Shown one piece after another: positions 2,770-60,000 of a stretch of 64,000 nucleotides of DNA; the stretch's first letter is position 1, and every line of letters begins with the position of its first letter. The notes beneath the pieces were generated by a model. It had not been told where the DNA came from. It did not search any database and saw only the letters and a program-made list of their open reading frames with translations. Both the position numbers and the translations under genes were made by a program. Source of the DNA: Amoebophrya sp. A120 (lineage: Eukaryota > Protista > Dinoflagellata); contig CAJINV010000003.1 of assembly GCA_905178155.1 (NCBI GenBank), forward strand, positions 3,379,600-3,443,599. The letters are read 5' to 3'.

Positions 2770-3028
2770 TATCAAGTGTAAAAATGTCTGGGTCTGGAAG
2801 AATGCGCGATTTGTCATGCTTCTCTGGCATGACTCTTAAACCTTAACCTGTCATGCAGGTTACCCAAGAGCCCCAATTTCCTGTCATGCAAAAACGCAGT
2901 TTGTCATGCAGAATAGGCAACACCTAGAAGCTCAGAAACTTGTCATGCTGAGCCAGCACTTATGGCTTCCTCACGATACGCCACCCAGCATCACAAGTTT
3001 CCAGACCCAGACATTTTTACATTTGATA
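2770..3028. mobile_element. TIR miniature element, family A1 (259 bp), just downstream of a stop codon
   Basis: Ends TATCAAGTGTAAAAATGTCTGGGTCTGGAA ... TTCCAGACCCAGACATTTTTACATTTGATA. TSD TCATC at 2765-2769 and 3029-3033. Interior closely matches 59190-59441 and the reverse complement of 27140-27394. Confidence 0.93.
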
Positions 3029-3047
3029 TCATCAAGTTTCGGCCTGC

Positions 3048-5717
3048 TCATGTGCCCGACGCAGTAGAGGTGGTGCCGCCGCCGCCGCCGGTGGTTGTGT
3101 AGGACGCGGTCGAGGTATGGAAGAGCACAACTCCCCCTCCTCCTCATTTGTACAGCATGACGGGCAACACAAGCATGAGCAAGAATGCCGGTTTTGCATG
3201 ACAAATTTACACTGGATTATAGTGCTACCTGGGCTACCAGAACTTGTCATGCAAACAGTGTCAAGAGGCAAAGGGTGGATTGGGTATTTTGCATGACAAA
3301 TGAGGGGGAGAAGGAGTTGTGTACTTTCATACGAGGTGGAGGGCAAGCGGGTCGCGCCAATGGAGATTCCCGGGATGTTGAAGCCGGCAGTATCAAAGTG
3401 AAAAAAGCCCCCACCCCATATCGGAAACGAAAGATGCGCGAATTTGTGATGCTGTATTTGAGGCGTGAGGCGGCAATGATCACACTTAGGGGAGGTGGAA
3501 CAGTCAGCAGCCCGAACTCATCGGTTTTGCCAGGTCCACAACCCCCTGGGGGTGAAATACGGGGGTGGCTCCGCGTGGCGGCGATCTAGGATCGCTACCT
3601 GGAAGAAGGAATGGGAGCCTCTTTTCAGAAGTACTCCACAAACCTAAGCCAACCACTGCCCCCGCAGTCACAAACTCACACCCGACATCGAGAACCGATG
3701 CGAGGGAGACCCCGGTAACCCTTCCCTGCGACCGAATACCGAGAGGGATAAGTGGACCCCTCAGTTTAGACGGAAGCAGAGGCATAGTCCCGGAGGGCAC
3801 AAAGTGTACGAATGCTCCCCCTAGTGAAAGCCGGGTCGTTTCAGCACTATGAAACAGGTGTACGATGCAGCACTAGTGTACGATGCTGTATTTGAGTACA
3901 CAAATCGACTTGTATTGCTAGAAGGCCAAGAGACGAAGTTGCGGCCTAAATTGCAGGCAATCTGTCATGCTGTTTCACACTTCCAGTTGCCTCCTGTCAT
4001 CCTGGGGCTGCAAGGCTTTCCCACGCTAGACAGCACTACTGTCCGCATCTTTTGCCTTCTAGCATCACAAAGCTGATTTGTGACCACAAATCTGCATGAC
4101 AGATTTCAGTTTTGATATGGGGAGGGGGCATTTTTCATTGTGATAGGCAGGGGCAGAGAGTTGCTGTGGTGCGGAGCTGGTGGATACGGCGGCTAAGGTA
4201 CCATTCGGCTGAAGCGCATACGTGGTTGTTGTCGACGTCGGGGTAGCTGTTGCTGGTGGCGCCATCGAGGACGCACCCCCCACGTGTGCTGCTGCACCGG
4301 TGGCGGGGGTGGTTGTAACTGTGGCTGCTCCTACTTGGTGCAAACCTTGCGGCGCTGATGCGGCAGAGGATGTGGTCGTTGGGAGGATACCACTCGGCGC
4401 AGTGGCGGCTATTACGCCCGGAGACACCACGACTGGGGGGTTACCAAGGGCCAGTGCCTGTTGCTGCTGGTGTTGGACTGTATGAGTTGCGAAGCTCTTA
4501 CGATTTTTAAAAATAAGAAGGGGACGATGCATCATGATCGATTTCCTGCAGCTACACCTATTGATTTATCATCAGGATCTAAATATCATCTGCTAGGAAG
4601 AATCTGAATCTCAACAATGCAGGATGGATTTTTTTTTCCACTTCTCCTCAAGAACAACGAAAAACGCACACTCGCGGTGATGACCTGCTACCTGCCAGCT
4701 GCATCGCTGCATATTGTTGCCGTAACGCCGCCTGCTGCATATCTGCGGGGCTCAGACTGTAACCGCCGGGGGACGCACCGTAGCCAAGGGGTGGTTGCCG
4801 CTGTCGAAACTCGCGGACTCGCTCTCCAATGTCACTAAAAACCTGCTGTAGACGCACCTGTTTTGTTTATAAAACATCGCTAGATCATGAGCGACAGCAA
4901 CGAGCTTTTTTTTCGGAATCAACCGACACTTCGTGTCTGTGAGAGAGAGGGTGCACCACCACTTCTAATGCAACAATTGAAAGAAAATCCGGTCCTTCCT
5001 CTGCCTCGTCTCATTCAAGTTCTCGTCTTCAAGACGAGTTGTATAGTACTTCTTTATGCATGGCAGTTTTGTAAATGTAAAACTCAGGACCTTGTGCCCG
5101 GGGAGCCACTTGACACTGTTGAAGGCCTCAATGTCTGCCAGCGTGTCTGTGGTAAGCGTTGCGAGGGTTTCCAGAGTATCGTAGCCGGCGTTTGTGAAGT
5201 GGGCCGAAATTTGCGTGGAGATTTTGTGGTGCTTGAAAAAGTGCACCACTTCCTGCCGCTCCTTTTCGAGCTCTGGATCGGCGTTCCAGATGCTTGCAAA
5301 CCCATGCAGATGCTTGCTGTAGTGCTTGCAGAGAAAGTCGACGATGAAGTGAATCGTGTTTTGGGGCTGTTTCTGTTCGATCTCCCGAGCGATGCGCTGA
5401 AAGAGAAGCTGCAGAGCGGAGTTGACGTTTTCCTTCATCTTCATCTTCTGGTACTCGTCGGAATTGGTGCGACCCCGCCGGGAGGCTGGCTCGATCTGGT
5501 GCTCGGCTTGTTCTACCGACGAAAAGTGCTGCACCGCAGGACCATTCCTGTGTGGTATAGGAAGTTTCAGAAAAGTTTCCTCCTGAAGGCGATCTGTAGT
5601 TGTACTTACGGGCATAGAACAAGATACATAGGTGGCAAAGATATCTGCGCGTGCGCACGGCACAAGGAGAGCGCACCATAGTCCTCGTACACGAGAAAAG
5701 GAAAAGTAAAAGACCAC
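3048..5717 (-). CDS. Protein with RIIa/Dpy-30-like dimerisation motif, a SAM-like helical domain and a low-complexity tail; multi-exon, 5' end uncertain
   Basis: VNSALQLLFQRIAREIEQKQPQNTIHFIVDFL resembles RIIa/Dpy-30; ISAHFTNAGYDTLETL...LPGHKV-RLQQ resembles SAM. GT-AG intron 5090..4858. Removing elements 3391-4145 and 3116-3331 (each with one TSD) gives ...LSAPAGFNIPGISIGATRLPSTSTASYTTTGGGGGTTSTASGT-stop at 3048-3050. Confidence 0.7.
3116..3331. mobile_element. TIR introner, family C (216 bp)
   Basis: Ends TATGGAAGAGCACAACTCCCCCTCCTCCTCATTTGT ... ACAAATGAGGGGGAGAAGGAGTTGTGTACTTTCATA. TSD CGAGG at 3111-3115 and 3332-3336. Removal leaves an open frame. Confidence 0.9.
3391..4145. mobile_element. 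TIR introner, family B (755 bp including a nested insertion)
   Basis: Ends TATCAAAGTGAAAAAAGCCCCCACCCCATATC ... GATATGGGGAGGGGGCATTTTTCATTGTGATA. TSD GGCAG at 3386-3390 and 4146-4150. Aligns with the reverse complement of 38971-39265 once 3463-3896 is removed. Confidence 0.92.
3463..3881. mobile_element. 419-bp nested insertion with a 15-bp TSD (SINE or truncated non-LTR retroelement-like)
   Basis: GATGCTGTATTTGAG at 3448-3462 and 3882-3896. The insert is absent at the homologous position of the 38971-39265 copy. The right end has repeated CAGCACTA..GTGTACGATG units. Confidence 0.8.
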
Positions 5718-8700: not shown

Positions 8701-9609
8701 TATAATCAATAGAAGTATTTGATTGTAGCACAGACTACATTCTGAGCTCGTAAATCCTGTGACTAGATTTGTTGCTACTTATCAATCTTCATCTGTGTGT
8801 CTTGTTGTTTGCAACGCATCTAGTCATTTCAGAAATGACTGGAGCTATAGAGGAGCGTCGATCTGTACGACTGGACTGGCTAATATGAAGACACTATGAG
8901 GCCGAAGATGAAAATTAGTCAAAAATGGATACATCTCCCCTGTTTCTATGCGCATCGCGTCTCGGAGATCGTAAAGCCTCGCGAACCTCGCAACTAGTAC
9001 GCTAAAGTTGGTTCTCTTTGTATCCAACAATTTGACTTTTCCCGCTCGACACCATCACGCGGTGCTCCGTCCCCACAAAATGAATCAATTTAGAGTTTAT
9101 CATGATCTTAATCATACAAAGAGACACGACTGGCGTAATATCCAAAAATTTAAAAATCCCAATAGCTTCCTTTTCGTGTGGAAAAGCACTCCTGGAGGTT
9201 GCTTTTGTATGCTGGTATCTGGAAGGGCAACCGCCATCTGAGCGCGGTACCAGCAGAGAATAAAGTCATGGCGGCTTGTTCAGTAGCTCATTTGTTGCGT
9301 TCCATTGATACTGTTATTTTTTCGACCAGAATGAAACCCGCCCGCGATCGCTGCAGAATGCAAAGAACCTGCAGCGAGCTGGTGGAGCACTTTACTGGTG
9401 AGATAAACGAAAAGAGTTTAGATAGACGCTCTTTTGATTGAAATCGCGTACGTGTCACCGTAAGGTTGTAGTTTCTTTTCTGTAACAAGCGCAACCGTAA
9501 GAATTAACACTGCTCTATGTCGGCAGAGTATTTTTCCAATTCATCAGCAGTAAGAACTAACAAGTTTTTGTTTTTCCGACTCCGAGTTGCGCATTGCGAA
9601 TATAATTAT

Positions 9610-12600
9610 TCATGGACAACGCGTCGACCACGCGGCGTGTCGTGGTGCATTACCCAACACATCACCGCTACTGCAGGTCACGGTGCACGGATTGCCGAGT
9701 GATTGCTCCTGCAATTGCCCAGGAGCTCCTCTAGTGGCTTTATTCTGCTGGTCTTCCATTTTTCTGCTGCCAGAGTTCTTAGTATCGGCCCCCGCCGACC
9801 ACGCTTGCGTTTGCTCATAGTCTTGCAAAAATTCGACCAGACGCCGAGGGCCGTATTTGCGGGCATACTGCAGGGGCTGCATGCGGGGCAGGTTGGAATC
9901 TTGGTGCGGATGAAATGCGTGTAATGGATTCGCCTTGCGCTCCAACAGCAGCCTCAGCATCACGTAATTCTCCGCTTCCACAGCAATGCACCTGAGATGA
10001 AAAAGTCTAGTTTACAATCGATCAACATAAGTATCAACCTCAAGGATCATCATGATGCACTGTTTTAGCTGTGCTTTTTTCATCATTTGCTAGCTAGGCC
10101 ACTTATTCCTCGGGGAACTAGAACTCCGAGATGTTGCTTCACTGCACGACACAGGACGTCTGATATTGAGCGGGATAAATCGAGTCCAACAGGAGAAAAA
10201 TGAAATGCGAATGCCTACAGGCACAGGCGATAAACCAAAACCATTTTTGAAAATCATTAAACTGATTGAGTAAAAATTTATGCTGCTGCTTATGCTTTCT
10301 TACAGTGGGGTCCTTAGTAGGTGACGATCATGGAGCCCGGATGACTGCAGCTCGATATCGCAGCGCTTCACATCCAGCTCGTGCTCCGCGTAAATCTCCA
10401 TGTCACTGTCGGCAAAGGCACGGTCGTGCATATCCCTCCCCGCTGCTAGGTACATCAGTTTGCTCCACCCCGACGGGTCCATCTCCTTTTCGCCCGTCTC
10501 TAGGTATGTCCGGGTGACGAGCGCGGCCCGAGAGGAATGCTCCACGTGCGCATAGTCGCCCGGGAGCTCCCATATGTGCTCGCCTTCCTGTCGAGCGCAC
10601 GGAAGCCAGCCCATGCTCTGCAGCTTCCCTAGCAGATAAAATGCGCGGTCGTTTTCACACTCCTCATCGTTGCACGATGAATCTTCTTCACACGACGAAG
10701 GGACTGGAGTTGTAGAGGTGGTCGCGCTCGATTTTAATACAGCTGTAGTGGTCTGCTCGGTTTTTTCCTCAACGCTTTGGGTTTTTCCAGGTCCAGCAGC
10801 AGCAGGAGCTTGACCACTTCCTGTAGAAGTGTCGCAAGCAATACTAGTTTCTTTTTCTACCACCGAATAGCCCGCACCACTACACGACTGACGATGTTCA
10901 TCATGAGGGAAGTTTTCGTGGCCGAGAGGGTTCTTCTCGAAGAGGTTCTTTTCCTTTGCGGGTTTTTTCCTCGTGGTTAGCAATGCGTAATACGCTCGCC
11001 AGTTTGGCATCGCATGTAAACGCAGTCCCTGCACAAAGGCCTGCTCGCGTTCAAGAAACAACTGTGGCAAGCTCACGTCCTGCAGCTGAAGTTGAAGGTC
11101 GTCCTCACACTGAACAAGTTGTATCCCACAACCGCGCCCTTTTCTCACGACATCTTCCGCGTTTGATGTGTCCAAAGCTGACGGGCCTTCTGCGAGCGAC
11201 GGAGCCGCAGTTGCTTGGCGTAGTACAACTATGAATGTAGTCGCAGGCTCCGCCTGTTGTGTCGACGGGTGTTTATTTTCATCCACAACAAGGATCGCGT
11301 CCTCGCGTTCCCCTTCTCCGTCGCCAATAATTTCGCCTCTTCGTCGCGCAACATCATGCTTCGTCAAGGTGTTGGAGCGGACAAACTCCTCCTTTTGAAA
11401 GTCGAAAGTCTTCGTATTACAATGAAAAATGCCCCCACCCCCGAACTTGGGAGCATTTGTATTGCAAACCTTTCCAAATGAAACATTCGCCCTCTTGCAT
11501 CTATCAGCATCACAGGTTTCCAATCGTGAATGGCAAAGATTTGTATTGCAAAAGACCCGCGCAAGAGCGGCGCTTGTCATGCAAGCGATGCGATACACGA
11601 CTAGACTCTGCATCAGAAAGATTCATACTTGTTTCATGCATGACAAAACGTTTTCATTTGGAAACTTAGCATCACAAATTTTTGCAATTTCAGGGGTGGG
11701 GGGCACTTTTCCCTGTAATACTTCGAGAGATTTTTGGACTCGAAGAAGTCCCTGTCCTCCAGAGAGCGCGGAGACGGGAAGCAAGCGGATTTCATTCCTT
11801 CCAGGGGACTCATTTCCGCCGTAGTAGTTAAGACGCCGTGCTGTTGGCGAGCATTTTCATCATTTTCTATGAAGTTGAGCTGGAGCAGAGCCTTCGCTTC
11901 AACCTCGGGTTGATGTTCTTCGCATGATCGCCGCTTCTGGGCGGCAAGAGGCAGTGCAATGCCCTCGGATGTGAAGCTGCTCACAGGGCCGCCGGATGTG
12001 GTGGTTGAGCCGGGTGACCCAAGTTCTTCTAGTTGTACAGGCAGTTCTTGTAGTGCAAGAACTTGATCCTCAACATGTGGTACCAGTTGCGCAGCAGCTC
12101 CATCTGGTACCGAGTTACTAGGTGCGACAGCGGGGGACGAGGTCCTCGCGGTGTTGCAGTCGCAAGGAAAAGTTTTTTCTTGAAGAAGCGCGTCAACAGT
12201 AGTTTCTCCTGCGGTCGTCCCCGTCGCACAGCGGCCGCTCTTACCGTTGTACGACCCGTCTGGCGAAAATGCGAGGTGTAGTGGGTGACTCGGGAGTTGT
12301 TCGTCCTCTTCGTCGGATTCAGATGCTGGAGCTGCGGGCGGCGCTGTTTCCTCGGAGGAAGCTCCGCCGTATCTTCGAGGTAGCGTCGGGCTGTCAACGA
12401 CGCCGCTTCCCGCTTTGACACTCAACGTCGTGCCTTCATCCTCGGCCAGGCCGCTCTGAACGAGGTAAGCCTTTGTGCAACCCGTAGTTGAGGCCGTTTC
12501 CGGGCGAGAGGTGGACAACCGCGCAGGCGCAAGAAGATGGTGCTTGTCATGATTGATGTGTTCAAGATCAGGGCCCTGCTTTGCATCGCCTTCTCCATCA

Positions 12601-16400: not shown

Positions 16401-19400
16401 GTGTTGCTGTTGAGAGGTGGCCACAGGTGGCGGGGTTTTCTTTGCTGTCTGTAGGTTTCTGCTCATCTTCCCGGACAGTAGTTTGGGTTTTCGTTCCTTC
16501 ATTTTGACGACCAGCGAATAGATTTTGATGATGATAATGATGGTCGACACGGAATTTGTCCGCTTGCTTGCTTGACGATTTGTCGACTGCGCCGATGATC
16601 ATGTCGCCATCAGCTGGGACGAAGTGGCGTGAGGACGCGGCCGCTCCAGGTGCAACTGCGTGCTGTGCCAGTTGCGCGCCGCTCATCTTCATTTTGTGAT
16701 TTTTCTCGTGGACGAGGCCCGCACTTCTACTAGTTGTACAACTGCTCGCGCTGCCAGCACTGCATTTATTTGCAATTATGCTGCTTGCTCCATCCTCGTT
16801 CGCTGTCAGGAGTCCGCCCTCAACCCGATTCACTTCTTTCAGATGTTGCGGCACCTCCGTCTGCAATTCTAGCTCTAGGTGGCGACTGCTCACACCTTTC
16901 CCCCGGCCTGCATTCCAGTTTTTCGCTGCTGTGCCATTACGCTCGAAGATCGAGGAGGCAGGTGGCGACTGATGCCCTGACACCGAGGACGCGGATGCCT
17001 GACGGCCACGGCCACCCTTGTTTGTAGTGTCGTGCGCCGATTCGATTGATGGCCTACTTGTTGTGTTTGACGGTTCTTCGTTCTTCTGTTCATTTTCAGA
17101 TGATGCAGATGAGCATGTTGCAGGTCCTGTCTTTTCGCTCTCGTGCACTGCAGCAAAGGCGCTAGCCGCATCTACTCCAGGCCGGTACTTATATCCATTG
17201 GACCGATTCCGATTCCTCGTCTGCGCGTCTACCGCACGGAGCGAAGCGCGGCCTTTCCCGTCGTTCGGTCTCCCCAGCAACGTTTTGTGCCATGGACTTG
17301 GCGCACTGATGGTGAAGTTTCAATCTCTATTTGTTTTTTTTGGTCGCGAGTCGAAACACCAAATGAAGATTTGATTTTCTGAACAGTTCAATCACGAATA
17401 ACAGTAGATGCATGATGAAAATATTCCTCAGAAAGTAGAGTGAGAAGTTGATGCACCAAGCCATACCTTCCTGAAAGTCCCTCGCTGGAAGCGATTGTAG
17501 CCCCGGATCCTCCCTTTGCGCCACGTTTGTTCACTTTGGTCTCCCTCTCCGCTTGATGTTCGTTATCGTTGTCCTCCACGGAACTACGTGCAGACGCGGT
17601 TGTGAAATAAGGTTGCCCAGATACCAAGAAGGCGGTGTGGTCGGCTTCGTACTGAGTTCTTCTTGTAGAGGAAGACGACTGCTCCTGCTCGATGGGCTCC
17701 TCTTGATGAGGAGGCGCAGGGCTGCGAGCGTCTGAAGCTTTGTGCACCGTGCTGGCGCCACCTGCTCGTATCTTATCCACGGTAGACGAAGGAGCCTCCA
17801 CCGATGCAGCGACGCGTGGAAAAATCGTCGTCGACGTAGCCGATGCTGCAGGCCGACAATGAGGATCACCGGAAGAAGTGGTGCCTGCAAGGCCGGTTGC
17901 TGCGCACGACTGCCTTCCTGTACCACGTGCTGCCAGATGCGCGGGAGTTGCAGCAGCATGAACGTCGACATTTTTCCGATTGTCTCCCCGGTATCGAATG
18001 CAAGAATGTCATGAGGGTCTGGAATATTGCAACTTGCGATGCGCAGTGTGGACTAGACAAAACTCTGTCTTGCATGATAGGCACCAAAAATGACCTTACA
18101 CTTTTTCTCACTAACTACAGGCTACGCATGAAAACGCCTGCATCGCGGATCTTGTCATGACCAGGCTGTGCGTGCATTTCAGACTTTGACCTTGTTCTTG
18201 CAGGCCCAGAAGATGCAGGATACGTGTGTAGACCTCCCAGACATTTAATTTGCATTCCATAGCCGGACAGAGGACCGCGGGAACCTGCAAGCGGAGGCGG
18301 CCGCCGCTGGTGCTCCGTATCGGTGAGCCAGCTGTTGTGCCCCTGGGGCGAAATCAGCATTCTCGTCGGGGCCCCTTCGGCGCTGCGCATCTTCGTTTTG
18401 CGTCTCGTCGGTGCTGCGCATCTGATCTGGAATTTGGTCCTCCGAGGAGGGGCCGCCGTCGGTCAGTGTAGCCGCACAATTAGAACGCGGCTTCTGAAAA
18501 TGGTCTCGCGTTATGCTCAAAAGGGACGGAGGCGGTAGTTGCCCGTAGTTCACATGTTGAACACCATGTGTCTGGGGGTACAAGGACATCCTGATTGATG
18601 AATCAGCAGGGAAATTGCGATATAATTGGGAAGAAGCACTTGTTCTTTTTGTGTTGGTCCTCGTGTCATCCTGCCGCGCATCCTCTACTACTTCTTCGTG
18701 GTGCTGGTGTCTGCCTGAAGATAGGGACGTAGAAGTATTCATCTGGTAGCTTCCTCGCTGCTGGTTTTGACGTCCGGCGGTCCGGGGCGGGTCGGGGTGG
18801 CGGGAGCTGTCGCTTTGATACTGAAAAGGATGCTCATGAGTTTGGACGTTGTAGTAGTCCTGCTGGTCTCGGTCTCGTACCCCATACGAATTCTGCTGGG
18901 CAGTGTAGTGAGCATTGAGAAAAGCACTGGCACTTTCTCGGAATATTAAACGACTCGCCTCCGCAGCCGGTCGTGTGGAACAGGTATCGGCACCCACGAC
19001 CACGGCCTCCGTATGATCCGAGAAGCTGCCGGGACGACCATTTGGCATTGCAGGGTCAATAAAACCTCCTGTAACTACATCACCCGACAACTGTTGATGA
19101 TTTCCATTTGTTCCCAGAGCAGGAGCCCTCACCAGGACATTCGCACGTGATCGATCGACAAGGTCATCATGGCTGTACGGATCTTGCTTATAGCTGCGCC
19201 CGCTTCGAGTTCGATTGACAGAAGAGGCGGCCGCACCATGATCGCCAGTCTGAGCAGGACCCTGAGAACTACAAATGGACGCATTTTTCGTAACCCTCAG
19301 GCTTTCAACGAAGTCCTGGTCATCTGCTTCCTTCTCCGCGGCCTCATTGACACCATCGTACTTGTGTTTCACTCCGCCACGGTTTAGAAAATCGTAGTCC

Positions 19401-19534
19401 GGCGGCATGTTCCGAAGCTGGTCGTCTAGCAGGACCGATATCACACAGAAAAAAGCTAGTACCGCACCATAGAAATCTTCATGTGTACTGAATACAAATA
19501 GCACTGCGAACGAAAAATGGAAAAAATTCGCCAC
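13438..19534 (-). CDS. Very large His/Gln/Ser/Pro-rich low-complexity protein, multi-exon, function unknown
   Basis: Four long minus ORFs (18245..19534, ~17388..17990, 15376..17280, 13438..15234) join in frame through element 17992-18261 (SSVR-GDNRK) and two GT-AG introns (~17465..17310 and ~15401..15265). Confidence 0.7.
17992..18261. mobile_element. Degenerate TIR introner, family A-like (270 bp)
   Basis: Ends TATCGAATGCAAGAATGTCATGAGGGTCTGGAA ... CCCAGACATTTAATTTGCATTCCATA. Flanks CCCGG / GCCGG (4 of 5 match). Removing 275 bp restores the frame. Confidence 0.82.
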
Positions 19535-19665
19535 GGGCGAGCGCGGCTCAGCATGCTGTCTAGGAGACTGCGCATTATACCCATAGCACCCTTTGGCGTG
19601 TATTTATTGTTGCGCGTCGCAAGTAGTGACACTAGTACTTGAAGTACAACCATGACATACTAGTG

Positions 19666-22600
19666 CTACTTGGCTTCCTTCTGCGGCATAACCGATGCGC
19701 TGCCCCGGTCTCGGTTTCGTTTGCTCATGGCCTGCAAGCTCCTTTTGTGCTGCTGCTGCCCTAGCCAACACATCTGGTCAACAGAAGCTGGATGATACGT
19801 TTTTGCCCCGGGTATCAAAGACCTCCTTGATGTTGCAGAATTCCTACCAAAATTACTGCTGGTCGTGCTACTTTGGTATTGGTGATGAAGCAGGTTTTTG
19901 ACGCCTTCACCATTGTGCCATTCCACTTTGAAGATGTTCTTCACTGCTTCGCTGCGCTGACCACTGCTTATTTGTTGAGAAGTGGAAAAAGAAGCACCGT
20001 TCTTGTAGGCACAGTGATTTTTGCTAGTATTTGGACCACCACCTCCCGCTGTCCCTGTTGTGGCGTTCGCCTGTTGCGGCGGCTCATAGGGTGCTCGTGC
20101 TTCTCCTCTGTCGGAATTGTGATAGTACAACTCATGTTGAGTGGTCTTTTTCGTGTTCGAGGCAGAGGTACTATTATTTCTAGTTTTCTTACTGCCTTTG
20201 GCGTTTGTTCCGTGAGAAGTTGCAAAGCTCTGTGTTCCTGCCGCCGCTGATGCGCTGCACGTGGTAGAAGTGTGTTGACCACCAGTAGTATGAGTTTTTG
20301 ATGATCTGCTGCTGGGGCGACAAGAGCCTCTAGTACCTCCGGCCGTCTCTACTCTGGAGGTGGTCATGGGGCGCTCGTCGACAGCTTTTGGATCATCTGG
20401 CAGCTGCCCGGGAGCAGCGGAAGGAGCGTGTAGTTGGCGGACACCAGCATGCTGTTCCTGATCCACCCCGTGGCCGTCAACAACATGCGGAAATGTAGTA
20501 GAACTAGAACTTGTGTAGTTTTTCGCCCGGCGAGAGGCAGAGCTGTGAGAAGTCCTCTCCTCGTCGTCATCGCCAGGCACGTGGTCCTCGTGGTCCTCCT
20601 CGTCGTCCTCGGCCTCGTTCACGTTCCGAAAGCGCGTCACACGCTTTGCTTTTCGATTTTTGCTTGTTTGCTGTGCCACGGTGCGAGAAGATGAATGCGC
20701 ACTAGAAGTTTCTTGTTCATGATCCCTCGACGTCCAGCTCGCCGATCCAGGGATGTGGTGCTGGCTTGTTTCAACAGCAGCTGCAGCTTTGCTTTGATGA
20801 TTCCCGGTAGAAGTTGTGGCAGCGGTAGCGGACGTTTTAGTAGATACTAACAGCTGGTGTTCCACATCTACTCGGCTGCGAGAATCTACTTCCGAGTTTA
20901 GCTGGTAATTTTTTCCCACAGTAGGAGATGGATTCATTTCATGTGGTGTCGGCCGCTGTTCCGGTTCATCGGGCCGGCCGCGAGGTTTCTTCTCATCTCT
21001 TGGAAGAGTTGGAAGGTCCTCAGGACGATTATGATTCATCGTGGTCAACATCATCTCCCGTGGCGCAGAAATATTTGTGGTAATCTGGACACAATCGGTG
21101 GTACCAGTTCGGTCCATAATTCCAAACGCCGAAGATGTGCTGCGTGCGGACTTGCGATGGTTGTGGTCGTTTTTCCACTCATCGTCGTGATGCCCATGTT
21201 GATCAACATCGGCAGGAGCACTACTTCTCCCGGTGGTGTAGTGACCGACGCTCTGAATAGTCACACCGTAGTCGGTATCCGCTGCAAAAGTTGTATCGCA
21301 CTCTAAGAAGTACTAATTGCACAGTACTGCATGCTGCGTGCTTTCTTTGATGAATCCACATCACACATTGCACTTTTTTTCCTTCTGGAGCTGTTTGTAA
21401 ATTATAGAGTCTCATGTAGTTGTTGTATTCTTGCAATTCTAGTTCTGAATGCGATACTTACTTTTGCATTGCCTAGTCGTCGTACAACACTTGCTCCTGC
21501 TCGGACTTTGTCTTGTTCAAGTAGGTATCAGCGGTGCCCTTGTTCCTAGCTTTATTTCCGGACGACGAACAAGATGTCGTCCATGTTACATCCTTGTGAT
21601 CCTTCGGGTAGTTCGTGTAAGGGTTCGGCGTCGCATGCGACGAAGTACTATTATTTGTACGTGATGTGTTGCTGCTTCGCGGAATATTTTTATGGTCGTA
21701 AGTGCTCATCGCCAGTTTGTTTTCATTTTCACCGCGTTTGGAGGCAGTGGTGGTCCTCGTGAGTTCGTGTTCTGGTGCGCCGTGCTTCTTTTTTTCTCGA
21801 TCACGACGGGAAGAGGTTCTTGTAGAAGTTGTCTTACTAGCCTCCAACAGCTCCACAGCAGGTTGTACTACACCAGCATCCTCCATCCACTCCACCTCTC
21901 GGTTGTACTGATGTCGCGCGCTCCTCCTGGTGTATTCTTCAGTTGATGCGTGACCCGGAGGACGACGGTGCTCAACCACGACGTGGCCTTCGTCTACAAT
22001 ATCGGTGTAAGTTGAAGCTCTACTTCCGACGATTTCATCGTAACGGTTCCCGAGAAGTGCTTTATTTCGCAGAGCAGGAGAACTTTTCCTGGGCGCGGCG
22101 TTGTGGTCTACTCCCGAGAATGTTGCCCTCCTAGCCTTGGCGTGCCGGTCTTCTCCTTCTTGTTGCGCACCACCAGCACCTTCATCGCCGTCGTCCTCAG
22201 GTGGTTCGTCTGTGGCGCCTGCTCCTGCGCACAACTCATCGGCGACGTACTTGTTGGAGGAGCTGTTGTGCTTATGTTGCAGCCGGGTTGTACTTGTATT
22301 ATGAGCCGTCGCGTCCTTTTTGGGGCCGTTCCCGTTGGCAAGATAAATATTATGGTCACCATGACGATTGCTTCCGGCAGACCTGCAAGTAGATGAGCTT
22401 GGGTTTGGTCGTGAAGCGGCCGACTCATGATCCCACTCTACCCGAGCAGAATCATGGGATCCCGATTTATTTGCTGCGACCGGTCGTGAAATGTTACGCG
22501 TTGCATTTCCCGAAGCAGAAGACCACGAGTTGGAGGAAAATGATGAAGACGCGGGATTGTTCTTTTTGCTCCCAGGAGCGCGCCGACGACTTTTAATATT

Positions 22601-26158: not shown

Positions 26159-26767
26159 TCACCGCGACGATAAGCTTGTTCTCCGGGTGCTTCTTCCGGA
26201 TTCCTTTTGATTTGTCTCAGCGACACCCGTGAGGCTTTTCCCGTAGTCCTTTGAGAAGAAGGTGTTCAGGTAGTACAGTGGGCCGCGAATCTGCGTGCTC
26301 AAGCAGGTTTCGCCTGCCAGTTCGGCGCCGCCGTTCGGCAAGGGTATGGATGTGTCAGAATCGAAATTCGCAAAATCAAAAAATTTGTGATGCGTAAAAT
26401 CTAGGGCACGGAAGGCCTGTATTGGGGAACAGGCAAAATAAGAGGCCGATTGTAAGCCTGTTTGGGGGTATAAAATACGCTGCGAGAGTAGCATGACAGG
26501 AGCAGTCTTCTTTCCCCAAACAGCATGACAGACTGGATTTTGGTGCTCCCGAAATTTGTCATGCGACACTTGAAACCTGAGGCGCCAACTGACATCGATT
26601 TTGTGCATCACAAATTTTTCCATTTTGTCAATTTCGATTCTGGCACTCCCATAAAGGGGCCGGGAACTTTACAATCCAATCCTTTTCGCGACTCGTCCCA
26701 AATTTGCTCGGTCCACAGCCGGATCGCCGCTGCGTTTTCCTCGACAATTTTGTCCCGTTGCTCGATT
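26159..26767 (-). CDS. Coding exon(s) interrupted by an introner; part of the upstream kinase gene or a separate small gene
   Basis: Removing 26345-26653 plus one TSD gives IEQRDKIVEENAAAIRLWTEQIWDESRKGLDCKVPGP-LPNGGAELAGETCLSTQIRGPLYYLNTFFSKDY with no stop. Confidence 0.55.
26345..26653. mobile_element. TIR introner, family D (309 bp)
   Basis: Ends TATGGATGTGTCAGAATCGAAATT ... AATTTCGATTCTGGCACTCCCATA (imperfect TIR of ~50 bp). TSD AAGGG at 26340-26344 and 26654-26658. Shares GAGGCCGATTGTAAGCCTGTTTGGGG with 59516-59822. Confidence 0.92.
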
Positions 26768-27013
26768 TATGCAAGAACGCAAGTATGTAGTCCTCAGGGT
26801 CAGTAGTCATGTTGAAACGTTGTGTTCTTTCACAAAGGTTTTTTAAACAATGATAAGGGCGTGGAAGTGTGCTGTCGAGGCTTCACGACCATAGTTGTAT
26901 TCTATTTAATTTTAGCACCCGGAAGGAGCAAAATTACATTTTTCATCTTGGCATGCGTTGCACTTCTTCTCTTTTCAATGATGACACCACTGTCGAAGTA
27001 CTAGCTGGTGCAG

Positions 27014-37466: not shown

Positions 37467-37467
<1 letters not shown>

Positions 37468-37497
<30 letters not shown>
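37468..37497. repeat. (GAT)10 microsatellite
   Basis: Ten perfect GAT units just upstream of the 37452 ATG. Confidence 0.95.
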
Positions 37498-38401: not shown

Positions 38402-41248
38402 CTAAACGTCGTTTTTGAATCTGATAGTGTCTGAATCCAATCCCACCGTGTCCCGGAGGTCCAAAGGGTCGACGGAAACCCAACCGTCTGAGCTTAGCGT
38501 CGTCGTCGATGTCGGTGCGGCTGAGGCTGGAGATTTTCCGCCCTGACGTGCGTCGGGACGAAACATCTGGGCCTTTTTGGACGACGACCCTTTCATCGCC
38601 TTGCCTTTTTGTTCATCTTGTTCTCGCCCTCGTCTACTCACGCCAGCTTTTCCGCCCGTGATCGCGCCGCCGGTAGTTTTGCTCCCCTCCTTGTTGCCCA
38701 CCTTTGCGGCTGCAGCGTCCGACGTGGCAGAATCTTCCCTGGCACCAGTTGCTGCATCAGAGTTGTCCTCGATCAGTCTCCTACGCATTTTGATATCGAT
38801 CGCAATTTTAGGTTGACGCAGGTGATGCGGAGTGGTACTACTATCGTGGGACTGAATTTGATGGCCGCCGTCGAGTCTTCCGCCTTCATCCCCGCTCTCG
38901 TCCACTTCAGACTCTGCGGCGCTCTGTAGGAGCTCGGGATCGTAGTCGGGCCTGAACTCGCGGATGTCCGTATCGAAAGGGAAAATCCCCCCTCCCCATA
39001 TCAAAGCGGAATGTTGTCACGAATCAGCTTTGTCATGCTACACGGGAAAAGATGCGGACTGTAGTGCTGGGTGGCGTGGGGGAGCCTTGCATCTTCAGCA
39101 TGATAGGAGGCAGCTGAGAGTGGGAAACAGCATGACAAATTGCCTGCAAACGAGACCACGACTGCGGCTCTTGGCCTTCTAGCATGACAAGTCGATTTGG
39201 TACCTCAAATCCTCCATCACAGATTTCCATTTCGATATGGGGAGGGGGGATTTTTCTGTTTGATAGTCCGCCACCCCTTCTGACGTCTCGTTCGGGATCC
39301 ACCAGACGGGGGCACGTTTCTTGATTTTCAGGACCTTTTTGTACGGACGCTTGGAGTACGTGGGAGCCTGGATCATCTGCAGTTCCTCCTTGGTCACCGT
39401 TCCGTCGACCGGCACGATGTACACAGCGGGCGTGCGTCCGCCAATGCTCGCACGAACATTCCCATGGAAGGTCCGGACGTCGGCCACCGGAGCAGGCTTG
39501 ATAATATTCGGTCCTCGCTGTTGAGGTCCACCGGACGTTGCAGGAGTTGTTGGCCCTATAGAGTTCGATGACGCGGTAGTTGCCGACTCGGCTCCGGGAG
39601 GTGTTTTTGACCTGTTTTGCCCATGCTTTTCCGCCAGCACTGAGAGTGCCGGCTGCATCCCGGTGTTGCCGATGATGGCAGTTTTTTTCTTCTGGGCCGC
39701 ACGCTCTCGCGCGCTGCGATAATTTTCGTCGTTCGCTTGTACTTCTCCTTCATCATCAGACGGAGCCTCTAGCTCAAAGCTTGCCTTTGACCGCAACTTC
39801 GGTTTCTGGCTGGCGTTCATCACATGAGTAAGAGTATTAATATTATACCCAGCCACAGCAAGATCCTGTTCCTGCAGCTCACGCTCGGCGTCCCCATTTA
39901 TAATTTTCCCGGTCGCCCCCGTGGAGTTATTGTTCATAGAAGGAGCGCCATTTATTTTCCCGTCTTGCGCAGCGCGCGCATCGATGTTGTGCTTCACGAA
40001 GTACATGATGCATCGGGTGACCAGGCGCGGGTACTCCATGTGCATTTGGTGCGTGCACCCGGAGATGACCCCGATGTCTCCGAGGTAACTGGCACCCTGT
40101 TTATCCATCCAGTCGTCGTCACCGAAAAACGAAATCAACGGGACGCCCTCCAAGTCCACGCGCTCGATGAGCGGCAACTCCGCCTTGTTGGTCAGGAACC
40201 GACCGAAAACGGCGAACAGGGAGCTTTCGGTGCCCGGGCTTGCGTCGTAGTTGATGCCAACCAAGTAGTCCACGAGCGCGTCGAACTCCGCCTCCGGCGG
40301 CGGGGTCGCGAACCGCGTCCGCACCCACGAACGAAAAAAGTAACCACCCCAGCTGCCCATCCCCTTCACAATCTGACTCGGGCCGCCGCTGCTGCTCATA
40401 CCGTCGAACAATGCCTCGATCATCTGCTCCTTGTAGCCCTTTTCGCTCTCTTTCGGCATGCGGGTTTTCGGAAACCCGAAACAGGGACTCAGCAAGATCA
40501 GGCCGGCCAACCGGTCTTTCACGGTGTTCGCGAACGCGGTCGAAATGTATCCACCGAAGCTATGCGCCACCAGAACGAATTTCTCGTACGTTTTATTGTT
40601 GTTGCCGGTCCGACCCTTTTTATTCTTGTTGTTTCCTCTACTAGTACTTTTGGACGTGGTTGATGTTGCCTGTGCAGCTGGGCCAGCACCTCCGCGCAGC
40701 GGTCCTTGGTTCTTACTACTTTCCGCGCTTTCACCCTCGCCCTGGAGGGACGATGCTGGCATTTTCGGGATTACCCCTGCTCGGTCATCACTTCCGGGTT
40801 GTACACCTACTCCGGGGTAGGCATCGCCATTCTCCGCCGCATCCTCGTCCCCGGGCTCCTGCTTCCACGGGATGACGGAATCTAGCCAAAAGCGGAGTCG
40901 CTTGATGAAAAAGTGCTCCACGTCCTCGGGCGACTCAAAGTGGCGCTCCTTCCGCATGCTGCAACCCATGCCGGGCAGGTCCAAAAAGTAGATGGGTCCG
41001 CTCCACCGCTCGACCATGAACTTCATGATGCGGTAGTAGACACCCACCCCGCCGCCATAGCCATGTATGACCACGAGCGGCAATCCGTTCCCTATCTCCC
41101 CACGCCCCTCACACTGGGCGTAGTGAATGCTTTCCTGCGCCCGCGGCAGCAACAGGTCGCGCACTTTCACCGGAACCCGAGCATGTTCCAACAATCGCCG
41201 CTCGATCTCCTGCAGATCCTCGGTGGGCTTCGACTCTTCCGCCCCCAT
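38402..41248 (-). CDS. Alpha/beta-hydrolase, ABHD4/ABHD5-like, copy 1; may have further 3' exons
   Basis: LVVIHGYGGG, YFLDLPGMGCS, FVLVAHSFGGY (nucleophile elbow), LILLSP, FFGDDDWMD, THQMHME. Joined across 38971-39265 as EGVAD-IREFRPDYD. Confidence 0.88.
38971..39265. mobile_element. TIR introner, family B (295 bp)
   Basis: Ends TATCGAAAGGGAAAATCCCCCCTCCCCATATC ... GATATGGGGAGGGGGGATTTTTCTGTTTGATA. TSD GTCCG at 38966-38970 and 39266-39270. Absent from the paralog at ~42455. Confidence 0.95.
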
Positions 41249-52572: not shown

Positions 52573-55500
52573 CTACTCGGGGTCCTCGTCGTCCCAGATT
52601 GGGGTAACCATGTCATCGGCCGGATGATTCCGATCGCGATCCTCGTTTATCATCTGTTCGTTTCCATCTTGATAAGAATTGTAGTGACTATCCGATTCTT
52701 CCGTAGTACCAGAATTATCTTCCGCGCCGTGTTGTAAACACTGTTCGTCCAAGTTGACGGGGCTTGGTTGCTCCGCTAGCTCGATCAAGAAAATGACTCT
52801 TCTCTGTTCGCGGAAGACGTAGTCGTAATTGTCAAAGTCTTCGTAGTAGAGGATCTGGTCCACGGAGGTGTAGTGAAAATTCAAATTGCGCCACGACCCC
52901 TTCGGAAAGTAGGTATCGTAAGGGAGGTGTTGCGGGTCGAATTGTACCTGGTCTGGCAGCAGGACCTCGCGGACCTGTAACCCGTTTTTCTTGCAGTTCT
53001 CCAGGAAAGTCTTGTCGAGCAAGGAGTAGCGATGCAGCGTGTGCGCGTACACAAATTGGTTCCACTGGGGGTCGCCGCCCGGAAGATCCCACTTGTAGTT
53101 CTCCGCCAACATCTTGGACACGATTTTGGGAAAGTATGCGAGTGCGCAAGTGCCCCTCTCCGCGCCCACGCCAAAGTTGTACTCTTGCAAAAAGAAACGG
53201 ACAGAAACGGCAGTGACTTCCACACGATGCAGCTACTTCGGCATGACATCATGTACCGATGAGTGTCATGCTCATGCGGTGTGGCTCCTCGTTCACTTGT
53301 AGATTCTCCATGACCTCCTACAAATCTACGTCGCACAGTGCTACTACAGCTGCATGTCAACGGGATCGGTTTATCTACGAAAGCTAAAGGGCATCAGAAG
53401 ATTCCTAGTGCTGGTGAGATTGGGCGAGGGGTTCTTGTGCACTTTGATAGAAGCCATTCCGCTCCGATGTCGTTGTAGACTAAATCGCTTCCGATCAACA
53501 GCAAATCGAACTTTTCGCTGTGCGACTTGTCGACTTCGAAATGATCCTCGAGAATCTTGGAAATCGGAATGCGCTTATCGTAATCTTCTTTCCAATCCAA
53601 TGGCATTGTGCCAAGTATTCCGTCCCACGGTGCGATTGGCAGCAAGGTGCCGCTCGCATCTTTGTCGCTCGTCGTGTTCTTCCCGTCGTCATCTGTATAT
53701 CATAATGTACTAGACACTGGACCATCCATTCTATTGTGGCTTGGTTTTTCTCTTATCAACATGGTGAACAGTACACGAAAACAAAGCAGGCAAGCAACTC
53801 TAAATTGCTCAATGAATTGTACATCTGTACTAAAATGTGTGAAACTTTGACTTTCGTCTTTCAGCCAAAAGCGAATTCGTATACCTGACCCGAGTGGAGT
53901 AGGAGTTGATGGAGCCGATTGAAACTCGAGATCGTGTTCTTGCTCATCTTCAAAAGACCCACTGCCTACCGGAAACATCTGTTCTGCCGATCCTCCATCC
54001 TTGTTGTTACCTAAGAGAAGACAAGTTCTTTCCCATTCTCATAGATACTTCCAAATCCAATGTCAACGAACAATGATGTAATGGTTTTTCTTTTATTTTC
54101 GAAAAATGCACCTCCTTTAGTCTGGAGTCCCACTAGTACACAAAATCACAATCATCAGAAAAGTGCTAGAAAGAAAGTAGTGAGAAAGTTGTACCTTGTT
54201 GATACGCGTCCAAGTCTATCCGTGGAACGTGTGTGAAATGCTTCTTGTGGCGAGCCACGTTGTGCGCCAGCCAATTAAACGCGGCGCCATGCTGTTCGGA
54301 TGCTATTACGTGCCAGTGTTTCTTCATGGTGTTCTATCAAATGCAAAAATGTCTGGGTCTGGAAGGATGCAAGGTTTGTCATGCACATTTTGCATGACTC
54401 ACTCCTGACGTCTGAGATGCATGCCCTAGCATCACAGATCTTTCGAGGGCTTTCTGATGCCTATACCGCACGAGAAATGCCCTCTCGCCGTGGCCAAAGC
54501 CAGGTCTCTTTTGCTGTTCATGCAATACAGATTTTTGGATAATGCAGACGCAGCATCACAAGTTGCATTCTTCCAGACCCAGACATTTTTACATTTGATA
54601 TGTTCTTATGCAGCCGCCGCAGCCAATACTGCTGCGCTTCCTCCGGGGTCGGGTCTTTAATCCGGTAATCCGGTTTCTTTAATCCGTAGGTCACTCCTGG
54701 AGCAAAAGGCATCTCGCGGCTCGCGACAACGCGTTGCAGTTGATGAGACAGATTCAAGGCCAGCCAGCCAGTGCCGGAACCCAGTTCGACGACCACCGTG
54801 TTCCGGACCGGATCATGTTCGTCCCTTTGAGTCATGTCTTGCTGCTGCAGTGTTTTCAAATGTTCACGGACACCTAACCAGTCGAAAGCCGTCATCAAAA
54901 ACCGGTGGAGCACCCGGGCAATCGGCCAGGTATGTCCACCCGTCGTGGTAAGGCCCGTGTTTTCCACCTCGAGCAGGCACATCTCCAGATCAGGCGCACC
55001 GGGCACGCGGCGCCAATACGCGGTGTCGCGGAGGTGCTCCGACTCGGACATTTTGTGATGTTTTGGCAACTGTTTCAGTGCTGCCGTACTGCGGCTCTTC
55101 TTATCATTTTTTGTAGTTGTACTCGAAGGACCAATACTAGCCTGCGCGTGCCCTGGAGTGGAGTCGAAATGTTGTGTATTGGTTGCTTTGCCATCTTCTA
55201 GTACATCTTCGTGACGACCGATAGCGGAACTAGCAGTCGTGCTGGGCGACGGTGGTTTATTTTCGCCAGATGCGTACTTACGGTTCTTTTCCGATGCAGC
55301 TAAGGTTAAATCTTCGTCCACATCATCTTCATCGTCACTGAGCCGGGGAAGAAGCAGAACTTGTTGGTGGGTTTTCTTTTTGGAAATAGCGGAGTCCTGA
55401 TCTTTCAACATCTCTCCCAGTGCAAACGATGTCGTCGTTCTCTTCATTTTTGAGAGCGAGCGACCTTGTAGTTCAACGGGCTCTGCAGCGCCGGAGTGCG

Positions 55501-55579: not shown

Positions 55580-57000
55580 TTTGATCTCGGCGGTGAGTTT
55601 TGATTATTAAGCAACGCAACTTCCACACGACAACAAATTGCTGAAACAAACTGATACCGGCTACAAATCAATAAACGGAAAAATGCACGAGAAGATTGTT
55701 TCATATGGGTGATGATCATGCGTAGGAGTAGCAGGTGTAGCAGTAGCCATTTCCATAACGCAATGTAACAGGGACTCACTTCTTGGATTGATTCTTCATG
55801 TTGATGCTGATCGCGTTTCAGAAATGGCGATCGCAACATCCGTCTGGACGGAAGACGATGAACCTTGGTTGCCACAGGAGAAAATACCGAGAGACACAAA
55901 AAGATACAATCTTGGTATTTTTCCGACAATTTTTAGCAACCTTTTCATCTTCGCTGCGCGATCTTCGTTCAGAATGATCTGGATCTTAGTCCGCTCTCGT
56001 TGCAACCACTGTTTCAAAAAGAAATCAAATCGGATCCGAGTGAAAAATGTAAAGATCTTCATCTGTCATGGGCAAAACAAATTTATGGAAGAGCGCGAGA
56101 ATTTCACGAAACCAAGATGTGCTGCCAGCTCACATGGCCGCCATGGAATGCACTTAAGTACTTTCTGGGTCTTCCTTTCTGGCCAGGCGGGCAGGCCGTC
56201 TTTTCAGAGATCATGCAAGAAAACAATCGGACACTCACCCTACTAGATCCTGATCCGGATCCCATAAGTAAAAAAAAACGAAGAAGAAAAGGTAGAACTA
56301 GACGCATACGCTGTAAGTAATCATGGAATCACAAACACAACGACAACTAGCAGATCCTCTGGTGCCGTTTGTGCAAGGCGACGGCGCATGCGAAGGAGCA
56401 GGAGAGCTTGTGCCTTGTGCGTTTCATTTGGGAGGAAAATATCATCCTTCCAACAAATATTCATAGAACTGCCTCCGAAAGAGCCGCCGGATTTTGGAGC
56501 GCGCTGCGAACAGAACTGTTCTTTGGTAGATAAACAAAACCAACACACATACTAGATCAGTCATTAGATATTTTTTTACTACTAGATTTGTTCAGGCGGC
56601 AAAACTTGTCTGCGTCTCGAACTCGAACGATGGCAGAGGGAAAAAAAAATGTTAGATGACGTCGAGTATGCAACCACTACCTATGCTTTAGAAGAGCAGT
56701 CATGAGCAAGTTTTGATCGCTCGGGCTCGAGGTCTATGTATCCATATACGTTTTTTTGGAAATAAGAATAACGGGTTCCTTTCGGAAGAGCACGAATCGG
56801 CGACGAAAGATGGTTTTGAGGCTTAACGAGGACCACTCCTTGCGAAAATGATTTATGAAAATCTCTTTTGAATGTAAGCTATTGATACGTACAAAATAAA
56901 ACAAACACAGAGTATAACAAACAACAAAAACAAAACAAATTGGGTATCGAATATCGCAGAACCACTCGTGAACTACATTTGTCTACTAGGTCGTGTCCTC

Positions 57001-60000
57001 TCAAGCGAATGCGTATTCGAGAGAGGGATCGACCTCAGGATCGTGCGGGGCGGAGTAGATTTCGAGCGGGAACGGTGCGATTGGGACCCAGAAAGGCTCC
57101 CCCTCTGGCTCGTGCCGCGTTCCGCGCACGAACTGCATGGCCCCGCTGAATCGCCCTTTGTGGCCCGGGATGTCCCCCGTGCGTGACTGGTAGGCGCACT
57201 CCCCGGGAACAAAATAGACCGGCTTTGACGGGGCGGCGAACGCGAGGAAATCCATGAAGTCGTTCTGCCCCATCCCCATGCCCATTTGCACGGGGTTCCG
57301 CCCTACGTCGTTGCGACTGGTTTTGGGGTACCGTGTCTTCCACTCCTCGTCCGCATACTCGTCGTAAAAGTTCGAAAACTCGGATCCGTTCGAATGGCGA
57401 TCCTCCAAGTGCCGGGAGTCTGTGTGGTACTGGTCGTTTGGGTCCGAGCTCCGGCACAGAAGGTGCCCCCCATCCACAAGCAGCGGATACAAGCCAATCA
57501 CAGCGGCGCCCACCACCGGCGTCCCGGGCATATTCACGTACGTATCCGTTTCCTCGTCGTACCGCTGAATCACGATCCTGAAATCGATTTGAAGTTGGAG
57601 ACTCGGTGTTGTACAATAAAAACAGTAGTAGAACAGTAGAGACCACTCAACGCGGTCAATTCATGGCCAGCCCTTTCAACAAGTACAAGCTGATAGATAA
57701 TCATAATATGCAGCCTTCAAAAATCTATGGTCGCATGTTGCCATGGAATGTAACTAGTAACAGGTACTTTCTCTGCAGGAGCTGGCAGCATTTGAATCCG
57801 CGTTCGGCCTCCGTGCCAGTTAGTGAGAAGCGGACCGAGTATGCGAATCCGCTGGGCGCGGCCCCACCGTGTCCGTTGCGGCCAAGCCACAGCCCAGAGG
57901 CGTCGATCTTGACGAAGTTGGTGGTGCTAGAGCTGCAGAGCGGTCCCCTGTCGGGAAATAGCGAAATCCCGCATCCGATTTTCGGACCCAGGACGTCCGG
58001 CCATACTGACTTGTAGCTGTAGATGCCGTTTTCCAAGCGATAGGCATACTCGTGAATCCACTCCAGCAAGGGCACCCGGAAGTCCGCGTTGAGCGCGATA
58101 AAACTGTCTTCCTCCGTTCCTAAAGGCCTGGTGGTCAGCTTATTTTTGGTCGCAGAAGATGAAACGTCCTCAGCCAGTCCTTGTTGTTTCGAACCGTCTG
58201 AGGTGGATATAACTAGCCCAGAAGACGATGCGGATGAAGATGATGCCGCTCCAGACGGACAAGCCACACAGGCGCTCTCAATGTCTACATTGCTCGCGGT
58301 GCTGGCACTAGCCGCATCGATGCTCATCTTGGTGTTATTTCCGAGTGCGTCCACTTTATTTGGGTCAACGTCCTCCCCGATTTCTCCCCTTTGCCGCTTT
58401 CTGAACAATTCCAGCTTGGGAAGTTCCTTTGTCACGACACAACGCGGAAAGCCACGCTGCACGTCTTGGGGGTTACACCCGATGTTGAAGCAATCCACGG
58501 AGGTGGCTGGGTCCAACGAAAGCGCGGTCCCGCGCAGGAAAATCTCGTTCTTGCGGTCGTCCAGCGTGCACTGCCGGTTCGCGGCGTAGCACTGAAAATC
58601 CCGCGACTTCTGGTTCATCGGGTTTCCCGGATTGAAGCTTTTCACGTTCAGGTGGCCGCCGGAGATAATCTCGTGGTACGCCACTACCGTGCCAAACACG
58701 CCCTTCATTTCGTACCACCAGTCTGCGCCGACGCGGCACCGGTGCGCGTTGGGCCCGATTACATTTATCCGCAACAGCTGCTCGTCCTCTTCCCGTTCCT
58801 CCGCCGTGGCCGCCTCGTCGTACGCAGCGGCGCAAGCTTCGTACAGTTCGCTCATTTGCCCGCCGAGCAGGAAGAAAAAGTCCACCACGGCGGACTTGCA
58901 GACCTGCGTCGCGATGCTGTCTGCGGACGACCGGGTGGTTTGTGAGTTATTTGTTCTCACAGCGGTTGCGTGGGCAAGGCGGGACTGGTGGAACGCTTCG
59001 TTGAGCTTTTTCCGGTGCAGCGCACCCTGGCTGCGCATCATGGTCTTACGAAGTGCCCTTGGCAAGGCCCGCATGAAACGGGCGGCGGCTAGGATGGAAG
59101 ACAAGTGCAGCCGCCGGTTCCTGCTCTCTGCGGGGCTGGTTGGATCTCGTTGGTACGAAAAAAATAGCTGATCGTAGTCCGCCTTCTCGTATCAAATGCA
59201 AATATGTCTGGGTCTGGAAGAGTGCATGTTTGTCATGCTTTCCTGGCATGACACTTCAATCTGTCATGCACGCTAATCAAGAGCCTCATTTTGCTGTCAC
59301 GCAGAAACGCAGTTTGTCATGCAGAGTAGGCAACACCTAGAAGCTCAAAAGCTTGTCATGCTGAGCCAGCACTTGTGGCCTCTTCACGATACGCCACCCA
59401 GCATCACAAGTTTCCAGACCCAGACATTTTTACATTTGATATCTCGAGAAAGAGGTGTCTGGACAAGCAATGTCGCAAGCGCCGGTATGTCGCGTAACAA
59501 GTCTTGCTGTTGCTGTATGGAAGCGTCAGGTTTGAAATCGTCAAAGTTGAAATAATTTGTAATGCATAAAATGCATGACCCGAGGTACGTGTGTTGCAGA
59601 GCAGGCAAGTGAGGCCGATTGTAAGCCTGTTTGGGGTTACAGCTCGAGCTGCTAAAGTAGCATGATAAAATCGCTCTTCTTTGCCTAAACAGCATGACAA
59701 ACTGGATTTAAGGGCCACCAAGATTTGTCATGCGCCACTTGGAAACTGGGTTCCAACTGGCATCCATATCATGCATGACAAATTATTTCAACTTTGTCGA
59801 TTTCAACTCTGACACATCCATATGCTGCTCCCATCAGATTTCTGATCGTTAGCGTTCTCGTAGCGACGCAGTGCTTCATCCAAATCTGGCGTCTGCAGGA
59901 TCGTTGATATTTTCTTTTTGCTTTTCATGATCATGGGGATGGAATAGGAATAGAAAGCGGTAAATGCATTTTTTACAGAGGAAGATGAAGATCCCGGCGA

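Follow-up and report, generated by a model that had tools for sequence, protein, structure and literature searches.

Introner elements with terminal inverted repeats in Amoebophrya sp. A120: strict five-base flanking repeats, removal in either orientation, and a tentative cut position

The closest described relatives of the elements considered here are the introner elements of the dinoflagellate Amoebophrya sp. A120. In the passages drawn on here, Farhat et al. 2021 (PMC7789003) count 29,850 repeated introns, and describe A120 introners with a mean length of 240 nt, inverted repeats of 8–20 nt that start with TAT, continue with seven variable bases, and then read AAA, and direct repeats of 3–5 nt in varying positions. 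The position of the intron borders is called unknown there, and U1 small nuclear RNA (snRNA) went undetected in A120. The DNA analysed here is a stretch of 64,000 nucleotides from the same organism (contig CAJINV010000003.1, positions 3,379,600 to 3,443,599; 'the window', below), in which an earlier note, made from the sequence alone, had picked out fourteen elements bounded by terminal inverted repeats (TIRs) and had proposed that DNA transposons are creating introns that are removed without a scar. That reading holds up, and the elements are not merely similar to a published class but belong to it, in the same organism. We consider it very probable that the published introner class of Amoebophrya sp. 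A120 is what they represent, and likely that a transposase supplied in trans inserted them and that splicing removes them from pre-mRNA together with five flanking bases. Class, organism and transposon reading were all published in 2021 and revisited in 2024–2025, and as originally posed the finding is a rediscovery. What can be added is a more precise anatomy, along with an inexpensive test that would settle where the cuts fall. The details that go beyond the published passages are a strictly 5-bp, random repeat, removal in either orientation, removal of a decayed copy, and a narrowed cut position.

The window elements share with A120 introners, as those passages present them (PMC7789003), the organism label, TAT/AAA inverted repeats, lengths near the mean, the lack of GT-AG borders, and the lack of an internal transposase; a 5-bp direct repeat also appears in the legend to Fig. 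S19. They differ in having a repeat of strictly 5 bp that adjoins the element, TIRs as long as 64 nt, and a cut position confined to 3–4 bases into the upstream repeat. Host, TIR motif, a direct repeat within the 3–5 nt range, removal without GT-AG, and dispersed families all place them in the class. Gozashti et al. 2025 (PMC12130899) divide A120 introners into 58 families, and most of the 22 rows examined are classed as 'TIR DNA, unknown'. Some of these families resemble ours in length (252–260 or ~305 bp) and in their mostly non-canonical ends; their duplication lengths, assigned automatically, differ in running from 2 to 5 or in being missing, and the comparison is one of descriptions, not of sequences.

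More distant systems share fewer of these features. IS3EU/GingerRoot transposons, in the account consulted (PMC10045372), likewise combine TA..TA termini with terminal inverted repeats, but usually make 6-bp duplications, whereas the repeat here is 5 bp (190 of 299 candidate pairs in a second assembly, described below, against none with 6 bp). The introns of euglenids and diplonemids, as treated in the sections cited (PMC11282704, PMC12621601), are alike in end-pairing, duplication-like repeats, lack of GT-AG, a suspected origin from miniature inverted-repeat transposable elements (MITEs), and an unknown mechanism of removal, which the 2024 review among these (PMC11282704) leaves open. Euglenid introns differ, however, in carrying CAG/CTG at +4 to +6 and −8 to −6, where these elements have TAT/ATA; the euglenid introns leave as circles. 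The introners of Micromonas and Aureococcus (PMC11282704, PMC7789003; in the parts cited) are also TIR elements that are non-autonomous and, owing to their duplication, leave no scar on removal, but they either contain or borrow ordinary splice sites, whereas the repeat here supplies neither G nor AG above chance.

All fourteen elements are present at the starts reported, and every one reads TAT...ATA: TAT occurs at 28 of the 28 ends, and AAA follows at positions 11–13 from the end at 19 of these, in 11 of the 14 elements. The flanking 5-bp repeat is perfect in eleven, as the note had it, and imperfect at 17992 (4/5), 27579 (3/5) and 29096 (3/5). Two of its figures change. Ungapped TIRs span 12–64 nt rather than 27–50 bp, and four extra copies (at 19439, 21276, 26768 and 53135) bring the total to eighteen in 64 kb, or 8.7% of the window. 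These copies group into families whose members are 70–89% identical. Twelve window pairs combine TAT..ATA ends, TIR identity of at least 14/20 and a perfect 5-bp repeat; twenty locally shuffled windows together yield one. An Rfam search returned no matches. With TIRs, a fixed-length target duplication and an empty homologous site (below), the elements have the properties of MITEs, and the 5-bp repeat is best understood as a target-site duplication. All host genes lie on the minus strand, to which the eighteen copies are also referred.

A motif within the elements deserves mention in its own right. T[CG]ATGC occurs inside 15 of the 18, with a density of 13.4 per kb in the elements and 1.2 per kb elsewhere in the window (~11-fold); it is common to families with different TIRs, and is missing from three older-looking copies. 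It is a candidate transposase-binding site, and would more likely serve transposition than removal.

The decisive prediction of the note was that transcripts should skip exactly the length of the element plus 5 nt, and among the elements covered they do so at nine of ten. Contigs were examined over two stretches that hold ten of the fourteen listed elements, joints being counted among the rows listed. Runs X1 to X4 are read as spliced RNA because ordinary GT-AG introns, too, are missing from their contigs. In X1, X2 and X4, 264, 221 and 760 nt are skipped at 2770..3028 (259 bp), 3116..3331 (216 bp, in a coding exon) and 3391..4145 (755 bp), all with perfect repeats. In X1 and X3, 311, 314, 260, 263, 278 and 417 nt are skipped, in order, at 11415..11720 (306 bp), 26345..26653 (309 bp), 27140..27394 (255 bp), 27579..27836 (258 bp), 27877..28149 (273 bp) and 29096..29507 (412 bp), and 343 nt at the extra copy 26768..27105 (338 bp). 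At several of these junctions, the contig's shorter side measures only 29–36 nt, and at 26768 it is 29 nt. The exception is 17992..18261 (270 bp; repeat mismatched at position 5, frame restored by removal), where depth is low and no contig among the rows listed bridges the element. Run X5 behaves as DNA, instead: its depth is flat at ~26, canonical introns are kept, and one contig runs unbroken over 11682–22100. Of the three joints in its table, at 2770, 3116 and 3391, it supports none. Depth over element bins in X5 far exceeds the flat baseline, although this is not a copy number.

The copy at 2770 lies in the 3' untranslated region (UTR), beyond the stop at 3048–3050 of a 409-codon frame, and the note had left it out of its thirteen introns. 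Since it, too, is removed, fourteen of the listed elements, rather than thirteen, behave as introns. The note had also named nearby GT-AG sites as an alternative. On the transcribed strand, a GT/GC-AG register of the exact length occurs in none of the eighteen copies. One joint, at 3116, fits GT..AG on the non-transcribed strand only, and was rejected as a canonical intron. Two pairs of relatives bridged by RNA lie in opposite orientations: 2770 and 27140, both of the main family, the latter also opposite to 59190; and 27579 and 27877. One family is thus removed in either orientation. The raw-read runs X9 and X10 align only to element ends, and not to exons at 90%; they are uninformative on splicing. 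Over window positions 27363–27960, X9, whose raw RNA reads carry the same species label, shows this element family with different flanks and no exon reads at 90%, likely a single copy retained in an abundant transcript from elsewhere.

Reading frames and proteins agree with the RNA. Thirteen of the fourteen listed elements interrupt coding sequence, as the note maintained, each with 1–11 in-frame stops, and deletion of the element plus 5 nt opens a long frame at each coding copy. The frame alone does not fix the length removed, because +2 or +8 would open it as well. Searches with three exons each returned one protein, 99–100% identical and named Amoebophrya sp. A120. When public proteins are walked along the window, the gaps they read are exactly the element plus five: 300 nt in P0004 at 38971..39265 (295 bp, in an alpha/beta hydrolase gene), 271 nt in P0002 at 54335..54600 (266 bp, main family, perfect repeat, in a methyltransferase gene), and 257 nt in P0003 at 59190..59441 (252 bp, main family, perfect repeat, in an F-box-like gene), the three lengths that had been predicted. 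P0002 also reads a 320-nt gap at the extra copy 53135..53449 (315 bp, repeat 3/5), using bases of the upstream repeat copy, and P0003 a 312-nt gap at 59516..59822 (307 bp, perfect repeat), a copy of the same family as that at 26345. P0001 (1626 aa; no Pfam match) reads through six copies between 26345 and 29507, the decayed one at 26768 among them. Support from P0001 to P0004 is not independent, because the proteins derive from the same genome.

That removal reconnects conserved motifs, as had been claimed for four genes, is only partly borne out. Removal does rejoin the two halves of the methyltransferase, and at the hydrolase junction the sequence agrees with a tandem paralog that has no intron there; the hydrolase and F-box junctions, on the other hand, fall outside Pfam domains. 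For the kinase, the claim finds no support: the sole kinase-like frame seen, at the start of the window, contains none of the fourteen elements. The hydrolase paralog lacks the 38971 copy and presents an empty homologous site near 42460. The two tandem alpha/beta hydrolase genes, at 39179–41251 and 42326–45238, are ~70% alike in DNA in stretches, and it is the upstream one that gives the empty site. The 755-bp element at 3391 is a relative of the 38971 copy, 77% identical and in opposite orientation, enlarged by ~450 internal bases; these lie at window 3433–3881, and are absent from a DNA contig that represents a shorter relative. The two remaining extra copies, where depth is low and no contig among the rows listed forms a bridge, are known from sequence and frame: 19439..19690 (252 bp), with a perfect repeat, and 21276..21475 (200 bp), a decayed copy with a 4/5 repeat, whose 5' end reads TAG rather than TAT and whose removal joins a 665-codon frame to downstream frames.

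A larger sample came from one other public assembly (JACKZZ01), whose loci were collected with a 20-base TIR pattern, and to which all 80 of the matches listed belong; we do not read it as evidence that families cross strains. The pattern had no matches in viral contigs. The 149 loci (~480 kb) contain 299 candidate TIR pairs. Of these, 190 have a perfect 5-bp repeat, three a 4-bp repeat, and none a 6-bp repeat, and the repeats comprise 170 different sequences: the duplication is strictly 5 bp, and random in sequence. Orientation can be assigned for 110 of 329 candidates, with families present both ways (18 versus 26), and only 8 of these 110 allow an exact GT/GC-AG register. With none of eighteen in the window doing so, the elements do not fit the GT/GC donor and AG acceptor of ordinary U2-type introns. 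Nor, in this assembly, is G enriched at repeat position 5 (31/83, p 0.09), or AG at positions 3–4 (7 versus 6.1 expected). Long TIR pairs in two loci, L063 and L069, were rejected as single elements; they span several copies or non-coding DNA.

Positions 1900–5700 of L063 hold a bacterial-like gene for PseB (UDP-GlcNAc 4,6-dehydratase) split by at least ten TAT...ATA copies, one of which ends in GTA, instead. Ten copies are listed, three of thirteen rows having been dropped as overlapping alternatives. The exons match homologs at 43–54% identity over the 56-aa exon searched. It is possible that the gene was acquired horizontally, and that introners filled it later.

Where the two copies of the repeat differ, the retained bases reveal something of where the cut falls. 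RNA retains at least three bases of the upstream copy at 27579 and 29096, and at least two at 26768; P0002 retains at least two at 53135. An upper limit comes from one copy in the PseB-like gene, where keeping one to four upstream bases places arginine before a conserved GGE motif, and keeping five places proline. Among 79 of 80 fetched homologs that have the motif, the residue before it is arginine in five and proline in none. Tentatively, then, a single register, if uniform, lies three or four bases into the upstream copy. Only this one of 27 imperfect repeats lies in a protein that was tested against homologs. A further imperfect repeat, in what we take to be an enoyl-CoA-hydratase-like protein, was ambiguous and was not used.

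A register of four would have the intron begin N-TAT, and so match the host's canonical donors. Fourteen of these were tried in the window and thirteen resolved: GTA starts twelve, a pyrimidine follows at +4 in ten, and G is found at +5 in only two, a rarity consistent with the report that U1 snRNA is absent. The intron would then run N-UAU...AUA-NNNN, and tentatively resembles the host GUAY donor. The nine predominant A120 dinucleotide pairs, as given in Table S4 (PMC7789003), all have T at +2, which fits the N-TAT register, although such pairs are aligner-dependent. In the literature searched, we found no report that fixes the register or describes orientation independence; supplementary figures S19–S25 (PMC7789003) may show some of this.

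These observations suggest how the elements might come and go. Non-coding TAT...ATA elements would be inserted by a transposase acting in trans, probably an integrase-like one, to judge from TA..TA ends like those of IS3EU/GingerRoot. The most likely remover is the cell's own altered spliceosome, a proposition that we believe and doubt in about equal measure. It would cut one base before TAT, N-UAU mimicking the host donor GUAY with the first base free, and make its second cut four bases past AUA, set by distance and not by an AG. Since the two ends bear the same short signal, an insertion in either orientation would become a scarless intron. The young copy at 54335 has a long terminal stem (z −9.97). 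The decayed copy at 26768 lacks a terminal hairpin (z −1.25; TIR identity 6/20, repeat 3/5), pairs only three of the first twenty bases at its ends, and has no T[CG]ATGC motif, yet it is skipped exactly; neither the long stem nor the motif is therefore needed for removal there. Taken as a whole, the A120 splicing code might be one in which the terminal G and the acceptor AG are irrelevant. Introns would read N-UAU(C/G)...(C/G)AUA-NNNN, a U1-less spliceosome would take UAU as donor and measure four bases from AUA, and integrase-type insertion with a 5-bp stagger would yield, in either orientation, an intron that leaves no scar and can still be spliced once its hairpin has decayed. This fuller scheme is speculative, and we think it likelier to be wrong than right. 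Existing RNA-seq would allow the cut position to be measured at copies whose duplications are mismatched. If the register lies one base before TAT, this would indicate a spliceosome relaxed at both terminal bases, and such a spliceosome would explain how the genome tolerates tens of thousands of insertions in its exons.

Several observations weigh against this account. No transposase was found in A120, according to the passages cited (PMC7789003). No open frame between stops exceeds 122 aa in any of the eighteen window copies, and no transposase-like frame was recognised in the window or the 149 loci (~480 kb), where the longest, of 238 aa, looks repeat-derived (no Pfam run on that frame). The status of X1 to X4 as RNA is a guess, no run being on record as such, and the evidence consists of assembled contigs from one sample of one study. 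A 30-bp stem would hide the donor from snRNAs. For the upper limit of the register, the evidence is a single residue, from another assembly and without RNA, and the deciding copy, 17992, is the one left unbridged. Mismatches over positions 1–5 of the 27 imperfect repeats number 12, 7, 7, 10 and 5, and neither their position nor A/T bias gives a signal of the register. Two copies, both without RNA, have deviant ends: TAG at the start of one in the window, and GTA at the end of one in the second assembly. Finally, complementary DNA (cDNA) can skip hairpins that lie between direct repeats, and skipping by reverse transcriptase would also retain upstream bases at positions 1–3.

The elements might instead be removed without the spliceosome, by a nuclease that recognises the end of the terminal stem and cuts at fixed offsets, after which a ligase joins the exons, a route that has been put forward for the non-canonical introns of euglenids and diplonemids. 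We regard this as a genuine possibility, short of probable. The strong terminal stems of young copies, removal independent of orientation, and the want of an acceptor AG all suit it, as does the departure of euglenid introns of this kind as circles, in the review's account (PMC11282704). But exact skipping at 26768, with so little pairing at its ends, does not, nor does the resemblance of element ends to the host donor at +2 to +4, and A120 has almost the full set of spliceosome proteins, in the passages cited (PMC7789003).

The skips could also be artefacts of reverse transcription, of template switching across the hairpin between direct repeats, the genes being disrupted in reality; this we think very improbable. 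Such switching would be expected at a hairpin flanked by a direct repeat, all of the RNA evidence is presumably cDNA, no coding function requires the UTR copy at 2770 to be removed, and the upstream bases at mismatched positions 1–3 are predicted too. Introns that exist only in cDNA are known ('falsitrons', in the part cited of PMC8240250). Against this stand the in-frame stops of thirteen coding copies, the six successive copies skipped in one 1626-aa gene, the conserved PseB-like gene whose exons still match homologs despite its ten listed copies, and 26768 once more, skipped exactly without a hairpin. Least likely of all, to the point of being largely refuted, is that the joined forms are empty-site alleles or excisions at the level of DNA. 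The elements do look mobile, and that the runs are RNA is no more than a guess, but the contigs with the joints also lack GT-AG introns, whereas X5 lacks joints at 2770, 3116 and 3391 while keeping its canonical introns. Removal at the level of pre-mRNA, whether through the spliceosome or otherwise, is the reading we retain.

Two further features of the window lie apart from these elements. At 24288–24816, between genes, is an element with inverted arms of 105 nt (85%) and an internal tandem duplication of 120 nt; its ends are not TAT...ATA, no flanking duplication was seen, and it is probably a different mobile element. And over positions 6700–10000, RNA contigs extend ~3.3 kb beyond the coding end near 10302, crossing a short frame near 9610–10011, which reflects either an extended 3' region or read-through from one gene into another of the same orientation.

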